The notes under the pieces were generated by a model. It had not been told where the DNA came from, did not search any database, and was given only the letters and a program-made list of their open reading frames with translations. Of a stretch of DNA of 64,000 nt, positions 25,620 to 59,057 are shown piece after piece. The DNA comes from Escherichia coli (GTDB taxonomy: Bacteria; Pseudomonadota; Gammaproteobacteria; Enterobacterales; Enterobacteriaceae): assembly GCF_030013595.1 (NCBI RefSeq), contig NZ_CP122768.1; one strand, given 5' to 3'. A program made the position numbers and the translations under genes. How positions within the stretch are numbered: position 1 is the first letter of the stretch; every line of letters begins with the position of its first letter.

Positions 25620-25996
<377 letters not shown>

Positions 25997-57193: not shown

Positions 57194-57479
57194 TTTTCGA
57201 TCCTTTCATTGTGTTGTCGCACATCCCTGGTGCGTTCTGTCGACGCATCTTTCAGGATGTAACAAAGTGTTTGCAAGGTCGAGTATAAGGAAAGTTACAG
57301 CTTCGGGAAGCGAAAAATGCTGGATTTTAAAGAGAGGTCATATTTTGCAACTTAATGGTTACATTTATTTGACATAAACAGAGGGAAGGACTGGCTACTA
57401 AGGCTGATTAGATAACATATGGGCAAAACTATTTGGAATATGAGAACGGTTGCGCTCTTTTAATGTGCTATGCCATATA

Positions 57480-57715
57480 AAGTCACTGGCGCAGGGAGCG
57501 CGCAGGGGGCGGCCAATCGCCGCCGCCCCCTGCACCCCCAGGCTCTGGCGAACAAAATCGCCGCTGCGCGGTTCCCTCAGCTTATCCCTTGCGGCTACCG
57601 GGTCGGGCGCAAGGGAACGTCCCTGTAAGATGCCCCCTCGCCGCGCATCCATGCGCGTCGCCCCGGCCTCCAGGGAACGCTTCGGCGATTTTGACGCCAC
57701 CAACACCCGTGCGGT
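57480..57715. repeat. GC-rich multi-hairpin intergenic element of unknown identity (between alx 3' end and sstT upstream region)
   Basis: Perfect 12-bp stem gcagggggcggc / gccgccccctgc (57502-57533), palindrome cgcgcatccatgcgcg, nested ccttgcg/cgcaagg pairings, and flanking ctggcg direct repeats; much more GC-rich than the AT-rich flanks. Confidence 0.4.
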
Positions 57716-57808: not shown

Positions 57809-58774
57809 TCATTCTCCCCGCTGCTTATCATGCCGATAATTCACCCAAGCGTTGATAATAAACGTCATCACCAGAATGCCAAACACCACGCCCAGCGAAA
57901 CGGCGATCGGAATATGGTAGAAGTCAACAATCAGCATCTTGATACCGATAAACACCAGAATCACCGCCAGACCATATTTGAGCATCGAGAAACGTTCTGC
58001 TACGCCCGCCAGCAGGAAATACATCGCACGCAGGCCGAGGATCGCAAACAGGTTTGAGGTCAGCACAATGAACGGGTCAGTGGTAACAGCGAAGATAGCT
58101 GGAATGCTATCCACGGCGAAAATCACGTCGCTCAATTCCACCAGAATCAGCACCAGCATCAGCGGTGTGGCATACAGCAAGCCATTCTTGCGCACAAAGA
58201 AATGCTCGTTGTCGATGGTGTCGGTCATACGCAAATGACCGCGCAACCAGCGCACCAGCGGCTTGTCGCCAATGCCTGATTCATCTTCATGGGCCAGCGC
58301 CATCTTCACGCCGGTAAACAGCAGGAAGGCACCGAAGATATACAGGATCCAGTCGAACTGCGAAATCAGCCAGCTGCCAGTGAAGATCATGATGGTACGC
58401 AGAACAATCGCCCCGAGCACGCCATACACCAGCACGCGGCGTTGTAATGCCGCCGGAACAGAGAAATAGCTGAACAACATCAGCCAGACAAAGACGTTAT
58501 CGACCGCCAGCGATTTCTCAATCAGATAACCCGTGAGAAAGGCCAGTGCCTGTGGATCGGCAACGGCGCGACCTTCGGTTTGCACCAGATACCACCAGAA
58601 AGCGGCGTTAAACAGTAACGACAGCGTCACCCAGACCAGCGACCAGGCCGCAGCCTGTTTCATGGTCATGGCATGTGCCCCACGACGCCCCTGCAACAAC
58701 AGGTCGATAGCCAGCATAATGGCGACAACAACAGCGAATCCGCCCCATAGCAACGGCGTGCCGACAGTATTCAT
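57809..58774 (-). CDS. alx: TerC-family membrane protein Alx (321 aa), putative Mn2+ exporter
   Basis: ORF 57809..58774; TerC family. Confidence 0.9.
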
Positions 58775-58990
58775 AGAAGTTCCTTACACATAAAAAAAAC
58801 GGCCAACGTCGGAAGACGTCAGCCGCTGCTTTTTATGCATAGACCTCGCCTTCCGGCAAGGTCTCACTTACAACAAAAAAGGAATACGTCTGCGTATTCC
58901 TTTCGGGTTGCCCGGTGACCGGATGTGGTTTTGCACACATCGTAATGACGATCGACCGGCAATGAAGTTACTCCCCTTTGCAGGTAACAA
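58775..58990 (-). promoter_or_regulatory. sraF: alx 5' leader: pH-responsive element / yybP-ykoY-family Mn2+ riboswitch (SraF region)
   Basis: About 215-nt structured leader immediately upstream of alx; assignment by position and established knowledge; motif not verified by covariance model. Confidence 0.55.
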
Positions 58991-59057
58991 AGTATGACAG
59001 ACCATTCAGTCAGTCAATGGTCTGTTACATGCCTTTTACACTGTTTTACTTTGGCAA

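Follow-up and report, generated by a model that had tools for sequence, protein, structure and literature searches.

The DNA directly preceding alx in Escherichia coli raises a simple question: is it the metal- and pH-sensing leader that its position suggests, and if so, why does the covariance model of the corresponding riboswitch class fail to see it, and which of its possible outputs is the conserved one? We have examined this interval within a stretch of 64,000 nt (hereafter the window) from contig NZ_CP122768.1 of assembly GCF_030013595.1, and all positions given below refer to it. A first-pass annotation had placed at 58775-58990, by position only, the alx leader described as a pH-responsive, Mn2+-sensing riboswitch of the yybP-ykoY family. 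The biology of the system is already settled: Alx exports Mn2+, and its leader responds to Mn2+ and alkaline pH together.

Identity and boundaries of the alx leader

The interval corresponds to the intergenic region between ygjR and alx of E. coli, and its RNA is encoded on the minus strand. In the list of open reading frames alx extends from 58774 to 57809 on that strand, with its ATG at 58774, so that the leader lies directly above this position; on the other side it is flanked by ygjR, also on the minus strand, with its stop at about 59058. A 401-nt query around the leader matches 5419 of the 5426 complete E. coli genomes, and the annotations found under the match are "alx: TerC family membrane protein" and ygjR. 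The assignment of the protein itself is clear, with a score of 181.8 bits for Alx against the Pfam family PF03741 (TerC). Compared with K-12 MG1655 the leader is 99% identical over 270 nt. It occupies the same locus as the K-12 alx leader (PRE/SraF; PDB 9JGM) and has essentially the same sequence, and the published landmark nucleotides and both termination sites of the K-12 leader all map onto the window. The leader and its promoter region depart from K-12 at four points: a base of the promoter spacer, two bases of the P3.2 terminal loop (nt 50 and 55) and the U-tract of P6, which is longer by one U (U8 here, U7 in K-12). No base pair is affected. Located directly upstream of alx and carrying the sequence of the experimentally studied element, this is the E. 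coli alx leader (SraF/PRE), a well-studied and already known RNA.

We have numbered the leader so that nt n corresponds to position 58983 - n, with nt 1 at 58982. Only with this origin do A11 (in L1), U35 and A37 (both in L3) and A137 (in the platform) of the published work (PMC12153347) fall on the right bases, so the upper bound of 58990 given by the first-pass annotation was about 8 nt too far and reached into the -10 hexamer. Otherwise its placement was correct, as the flanking genes and the identity to K-12 attest, and the leader extends from about 58982, the inferred transcription start, down to the alx ATG. The features discussed below are collected in Table 1.

Table 1. Features of the alx leader and of its putative promoter, with leader nucleotide numbers where applicable.
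Feature	Position in window	Strand	Basis or remark
Putative -35 hexamer TTGACT of the alx promoter	59012..59017	-	Read from sequence; TTGACN in fixed register in 64/79 orthologs
Putative -10 hexamer TACTTT	58989..58994	-	17-nt spacer; TAyTTT in fixed register in 64/79 orthologs
Mn2+ aptamer (nt 1-128)	58855..58982	-	Three-way junction of P1 (P1.1, L1, P1.2), P3 (P3.1, L3, P3.2) and P4
P1.1 5' strand (nt 2-8) and L1 5' strand GGAGUA (nt 9-14)	58969..58981	-	Motif conservation
L2 linker or "capping loop" CAUUG (nt 19-23)	58960..58964	-	Stands in place of helix P2
P3 domain: P3.1 (nt 24-34 with 62-71), L3, P3.2 hairpin (nt 42-61)	58912..58959	-	Covariation
L3 UCAUUAC (nt 35-41)	58948-58942	-	A37 at 58946
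P4 (nt 72-113)	58870..58911	-	In E. coli holds terminator-like hairpin B (58904-58877) and a U-tract (58880-58875)
P1.2 3' strand (nt 114-117), L1 3' strand GAGA (nt 118-121), P1.1 3' "switch" strand (nt 122-127)	58856..58869	-	Motif conservation
P5 hairpin (nt 119-128 with 133-142), loop GGAA	58841..58864	-	In full-length MFE; predicted OFF-state competitor of P1.1 and L1
Predicted ON-state alternative (anti-terminator) helix, nt 129-136 (58854-58847) with nt 165-172 (58818-58811)	58811..58854	-	Covariation
P6, intrinsic terminator D, stem nt 156-185, U8 tract nt 184-191	58792..58827	-	Terminator scan; 13 pairs then T8
Shine-Dalgarno AAGGA (nt 198-202) and alx start codon (nt 209-211, 58774-58772)	58772..58785	-	ORF listing

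The putative -10 hexamer ends 7 nt before nt 1. A consensus promoter scan did not flag the alx promoter because its -10 is weak, and we have placed it instead by the register conserved across orthologs, where TTGACN, 17 nt and TAyTTT would act as the -35 and -10 elements. The -35 hexamer is embraced by an inverted repeat (ACAGACCAT...ATGGTCTGT, about 58996-59024, minus strand). Across the 79 orthologs 65% of its cells pair, compared to about 33% in slid controls, and 19 species preserve all eight pairs, apparently through compensatory changes. It could be a ygjR terminator overlapping the alx promoter, or else a protein-binding site.

A three-way-junction aptamer conserved across Enterobacterales

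A scan with the Alx protein, taking one genome per species, gave 80 Enterobacterales loci ranging from Escherichia to Serratia, Hafnia, Pantoea and Erwinia. Both aptamer anchors are present in 79 of them, and the leader element stands always directly upstream of alx. When folded singly, the orthologs show a linker of 5-7 nt followed by P3.1, a loop of 7 nt on one side only, P3.2 and a P4 whose size varies widely, and no P2. This linker, between P1.2 and P3.1, has no hairpin in any of the 79, and since no ortholog has P2 the fold predicted from these sequences is a three-way junction. This is also the architecture described in the literature, where a short L2 capping loop replaces P2 in the Mn-bound crystal structure (PDB 9JGM; PMC12153347, PMC12934788). 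In the window, the aptamer folded alone with P1 enforced has an energy of -44.9 kcal/mol, compared to -45.5 for its MFE, which puts the three-way junction within 0.6 kcal/mol of the optimum.

The two strands that form P1 and L1 are the most tightly kept. The sequence of nt 2-18 (GCAAAGGGGAGTAACTT) is invariant in 78 of the 79 orthologs and the 3' strand (GTAAGTGAGACCTTGCC) in all of them; the L1 strands themselves are found at 58976-58969 (GGGGAGUA) and 58865-58860 (GAGACC). Our register for P1.2, with A15-U18 facing A114-U117, agrees with the crystal contacts U18.A114 and C19.G23, the latter closing a 3-nt loop (PMC12934788). L3 is a one-sided internal loop of 7 nt between P3.1 and P3.2, with nothing opposite. 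It reads TCATTAC in 65 of the 79 orthologs, and the other variants retain A37, which is invariant. This adenosine coordinates Mn2+ (PMC12153347); smFRET has shown docking at 1 uM Mn2+, and the A37U mutant loses pH activation (PMC12153347, PMC12934788). The metal-binding core has been described as structurally conserved (PMC12934788). A segment that by eye had been taken for L3, GUAAGUGAGACC, was rejected, being the 3' strand of P1.2, L1 and P1.1, while the true L3 is the UCAUUAC of nt 35-41.

Covariation was evaluated in a MAFFT alignment of 72 distinct Enterobacterales leaders, with the hypervariable interior of P4 masked and the registration derived solely from adjacency to conserved flanks. 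Under the three-way-junction model 95.8% of the cells are paired, compared to 27-40% in slid-register controls, and 16 of the 34 pairs have changed on both sides, a number that none of 500 shuffles reached. The changes are distributed over P3.1 (99.3% paired, five pairs changed on both sides), P3.2 (covariation at five of six pairs) and the base of P4 (six of eight pairs). P1.1 and P1.2 show no variation at all, and these two helices are therefore neither supported nor contradicted by covariation.

We have also built a covariance model (R1) from 40 of these aptamers. In the window it recovers 58855-58982 on the minus strand with 106 bits, this being one of its training sequences, and the next-best match has 14.9 bits. 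Held-out orthologs with intact aptamers score 63-93 bits and those disrupted by insertions 57-63 bits, so that true matches (57-106 bits) are separated from the background (20 bits at most). At the locus of Atlantibacter sp. RC6 (L025) R1 finds only a 25-nt match of 19.5 bits, and the alx ortholog of Rouxiella aceris (L076) has no aptamer, having retained immediately before the gene a terminator that resembles P6; some lineages appear to have lost the aptamer.

The interior of P4 tolerates insertions, and in some species these are large (L004, about 940-1110; L015, about 955-1090; L034). The P4 of E. albertii carries a REP-like element (naRNA4, 35 bits) between two copies of the P4 hairpin, and CssrA-like repeats (36 bits) occur in those of Siccibacter and "Enterobacter pulveris". 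The helix seems to be a site at which insertion is tolerated.

Expression platform and its possible conserved output

Beyond the aptamer the leader is also highly structured. Its 211 nt fold with an MFE of -97 kcal/mol, compared to -57.9 +/- 4.6 in shuffled sequences (z = -8.5, with none of 200 shuffles as good), and a terminator scan of 700 nt gave three terminator-like sites where 0.6 would be expected. Two such hairpins lie inside the interval on the minus strand, at 58904-58877 and 58827-58798, that is, nt 79-106 (with U103-108) and nt 156-185 (with U184-191), and they coincide with the products of about 108 and 190 nt obtained by termination in vitro (PMC9472077). The intrinsic terminators B and D known from the alx leader are thus found at their places, and the P6-terminated product corresponds to the SraF RNA. 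The first-pass annotation had mentioned several inverted repeats fitting alternative terminator and antiterminator hairpins. These repeats are real and beyond what chance would give, and both alternatives exist and covary, one as P6 and the other as the alternative helix.

The MFE of the full-length leader is the OFF state, with P5, P6 and nt 8-18 paired with the Shine-Dalgarno (SD) region. P5 is paired in 92.5% of the cells across orthologs and appears in 58 of 75 ortholog MFEs, without double changes because its 5' arm is invariant. This arm consists of the same bases as the 3' strand of L1 and P1.1 (nt 119-128), so the 3' strand of the P1.1 "switch helix" pairs alternatively in the expression platform, as in yybP-ykoY riboswitches, and the two pairings are mutually exclusive. 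P6 is 95.5% paired, shows three compensatory pairs and is found in 77 of the 79 orthologs. The alternative helix, which takes strands from both P5 and P6 and is incompatible with them, is 99.1% paired, also with three pairs changed on both sides, and slid controls range from 49 to 72%. Pair 130.171 is G-C in 60 sequences and A-U in nine, and pair 132.169 is A-U in 70 and U-A in two. Both pairs join the loop of P5 to the loop of P6, at positions that are unconstrained by P5 and P6 themselves, and their covariation supports a putative functional contact between the two loops. It fits a P5-P6 kissing contact equally well as a full strand exchange. Folding with P1 enforced keeps P6 and does not predict the published ON helix, described as the "P5/P6" helix in work that probed P5, P6 and the alternative helix co-transcriptionally (PMC12153347).

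We hold with high confidence that this leader is a cis-acting riboswitch by which expression of Alx, a TerC-family Mn2+ exporter, increases with cytoplasmic Mn2+ and is sensitised by alkaline pH. For the binding of Mn2+, the effect of pH through L2/L3 and RNA polymerase pausing, and the reporter responses we rely on the literature. In the mechanism that we propose, a sigma-70-type promoter would start the RNA at about 58982. The right leg (P1.1-L1-P1.2), capped by the 5-nt L2, would dock on the left leg, made of P3.1-L3-P3.2 stacked on P4, and the docked L1 and L3 (with A37) would form the metal site. The 3' strand of P1.1 and L1 (GAGACCUUGCC) could then either close the aptamer or pair downstream as P5. 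Without Mn2+, P5 and the P6 terminator would form, giving the transcripts of about 190 nt that are SraF, and in E. coli the SD region may in addition be paired with the 5' strand of L1 thus set free. Binding of Mn2+ would keep P1.1 closed and block P5, whose 3' arm and loop would instead engage the 5' arm and loop of P6, destroying the terminator and leaving the ribosome-binding site (RBS) open.

Which of these outputs is the conserved one can be approached by comparing species. The aptamer, P5, P6 and the alternative helix are common to the whole clade, which suggests that the choice between terminator and anti-terminator is the conserved output, and we infer that the anti-terminator branch is this output across Enterobacterales. 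A different distribution was found for the other two elements. Pairing of the SD region with nt 8-18, which in E. coli forms a duplex of -9.0 kcal/mol (z = -2.0), is found in 67% of the cells across orthologs, without compensation, and in 22 of 75 ortholog MFEs, with a median duplex z of about 0, figures that come from a crude MFE-based classification and from poorly aligned RBS columns. As for the site-B terminator in P4, a run of U5 or longer is present in only 11 of the 79 orthologs. Judged from these data, the SD-L1 pairing and the site-B terminator are specific to E. coli and its close relatives and not clade-wide.

These observations lead to the strongest alternative to the mechanism as set out above, namely that the element is the same but its core function is attenuation, by P6 against the anti-terminator, with RBS occlusion by the L1 strand as an add-on of the Escherichia lineage. 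It would explain why P6 covaries and is so widely present, why the competing helix is almost always paired and shows compensatory changes, and why the SD-L1 pairing is so irregular. The reporters measured in E. coli point the other way: translational fusions are induced 68-fold by pH and 21-fold by Mn, a response that is lost on deletion of the PRE, whereas transcriptional fusions barely respond and are not induced by Mn, control in E. coli being mainly translational (PMC10197570). Together with the limits just mentioned of the SD classification, this leaves attenuation as the core a rather unlikely, albeit serious, reading.

A far smaller chance is given to SraF acting in trans, with the RNA of about 190 nt that ends at P6 regulating other genes by base pairing. 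It was indeed first found as a discrete small RNA (PMC9472077) and a strong terminator precedes the RBS, but conservation follows the aptamer and the switch strands, the element sits immediately upstream of alx throughout the orthologous loci, and there is no known target or seed region. We regard such a role as very improbable, and retain the cis-acting riboswitch.

An 18-codon upstream ORF (AUG CAU AAA ... GUG UAA; nt 143-199, 58785-58841, minus strand) runs through P6 to the SD. It is probably not a conserved feature and was rejected as such, because its frame shifts with the length of the U-tract relative to K-12 and many orthologs lack its AUG. The shorter U-tract of K-12 puts the ORF in another frame, where it ends at a UGA overlapping the alx AUG.

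Relation to the yybP-ykoY class and the RF00080 model

The Rfam 15 scan of the whole window at gathering thresholds did not report the yybP-ykoY model RF00080. Its sole match was the bacterial RNase P class A RNA, rnpB, at 25620-25995 on the plus strand (317.5 bits, E = 4e-103). RF00080 was also absent at E <= 10 from a scan of 601 nt and from one of the 141-nt aptamer, in which chance matches down to 12 bits are listed, and it gave no match on the K-12 copy of alx nor on 20 diverse orthologous alx loci. The leader therefore stays below the 45 bits of the Rfam gathering threshold, but in the same run as K-12 alx the mntP leader of E. coli, used as a control, was itself under this threshold (41.6 bits, E = 6e-9). 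The first-pass annotation had proposed a scan of the reverse complement of 58775..59000 with RF00080 as the check, with the lack of a significant match counting against its interpretation. RF00080 gave no match at any threshold tried; taken literally, such a rule would falsely discard a correct call. Given the sub-threshold control and the strength of the independent evidence, we have not taken the negative as a refutation, and it shows that the rule was unsound rather than the interpretation wrong.

The evidence for the class lies elsewhere. The leader has the L1 internal loop, with GGGGAGUA on the 5' side and GAGA-CC on the 3' side, a one-sided L3 in P3 with an adenosine whose role as Mn ligand is documented (A37, PMC12153347), P3 and P4 helices backed by covariation (0/500 shuffles reach the observed level), and a gene of Mn2+ homeostasis (TerC) downstream. 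The four-way junction with helix P2 was not found in the window or in any of the 79 orthologs. That the leader belongs to the yybP-ykoY class and responds to pH and Mn2+ is established in the literature (PMC10197570, PMC12153347, PMC12934788) and supported in our data by the conservation of L1 and L3, the covarying P3 and P4, the TerC gene and the covarying terminator and anti-terminator alternatives.

The comparison with mntP makes both the kinship and the distance evident. The two E. coli leaders share the L1 5' strand GGGGAGUA, also identical in the RF00080 consensus, and the L1 3' strand GAGACC, a one-sided L3 starting with UCA and ending with UAC, the order P1/P3/P4 and a Mn2+ exporter downstream. 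They differ in P2, a hairpin in mntP (GAUUUCC...GGAAAUG) and the 5-nt L2 in alx, in the length of L3, 9 nt in mntP (UCAACAUAC) and 7 nt in alx, and in their response to RF00080, which gives alx no score. The L1 and L3 consensus sequences of RF00080 (UUGGGGAGUAGC and CGUCAACAUAC) do resemble those of alx, but alx has no P2, a shorter L3 and a P4 of different size. As read from the mntP alignment, the Rfam 15 model has its base pairs mainly in P2, P3 and P4, and much of the miss is probably due to alx being a three-way-junction variant without P2. Conversely, R1 run with filters off did not detect mntP, R1 being a very narrow model (effective sequence number 1.12). The two Mn riboswitches of E. 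coli are hence mutually invisible to profile methods, and homology of alx to the canonical members would be based on short shared motifs, topology, gene context and published structures, and not on a profile match.

This blindness in both directions, together with a junction that is three-way instead of four-way, could be taken to mean that the alx leader is a Mn2+-binding RNA that converged on the yybP-ykoY riboswitches and is not homologous to them. Against this stand the L1 strands GGGGAGUA and GAGACC, identical to those of mntP, the related L3 motif (CGUCA..UAC), the same order of elements with the same gene context (TerC) and a structurally conserved metal-binding core (PMC12934788), and convergence seems to us hardly probable. 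Least credible is a purely pH- and pausing-driven riboregulator governed by RNA polymerase kinetics and with no ligand-binding aptamer, which was the original PRE model and can cite documented effects of pausing (PMC3874183, PMC9472077) as well as the silence of RF00080, but which hardly explains an L1 and L3 invariant or nearly so in 79 species and has already been largely refuted by the published Mn-bound structure 9JGM, Mn-dependent docking and the loss of pH activation in A37U (PMC12153347, PMC12934788).

With the alx leader kept in the yybP-ykoY class, some consequences follow for surveys of the class. A negative RF00080 scan must not be taken to mean that a Mn2+ riboswitch is missing, since neither E. 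coli example reaches the curated cut-off and the alx type obtains no score at all. The entire enterobacterial alx clade drops out of comparative work seeded with Rfam members, and a dedicated three-way-junction sub-model would remedy this blind spot. A case in point is a 2026 preprint covering RF00080 members only, in which the alx-type L3 is reported as restricted to Bacillales (PMC12934788). We have found this L3 (UCAUUAC), with the three-way-junction architecture, in 65 Enterobacterales species, against such a restriction, and this fits with Rfam being without this clade. Genome annotation is equally silent. No annotated feature was present on the alx or the mntP leader in the sampled RefSeq genomes, and of the 12 RefSeq E. 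coli genomes in the sample, 11 had no annotation on the mntP leader (L003:962-1058 in E. coli K-12) and the twelfth only a "hypothetical protein" under the match.

We tentatively go one step further, in a proposal that we consider possible but somewhat more likely to fail than to hold: that the alx-type three-way junction is a coherent subclass, with at least 79 species, unseen by Rfam 15 and by the sampled RefSeq annotation, in which the decision between P6 and the anti-terminator is conserved and RBS occlusion is lineage-specific. If true, Rfam-based surveys would under-sample the class, the restriction of the alx-type L3 to Bacillales being one example, and the label "translational riboswitch" would not generalise.

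On the other side of the gene, a GC-rich block of about 260 nt (about 57449-57712) lies between the alx stop (57809) and the start of sstT (57193). The TRIP1d repeat, one of only three TRIP1 copies in K-12, has been located 96 bp past the stop codon of alx and 255 bp ahead of the start of sstT (PMC10888264), and by its position the block matches as a candidate TRIP1d.
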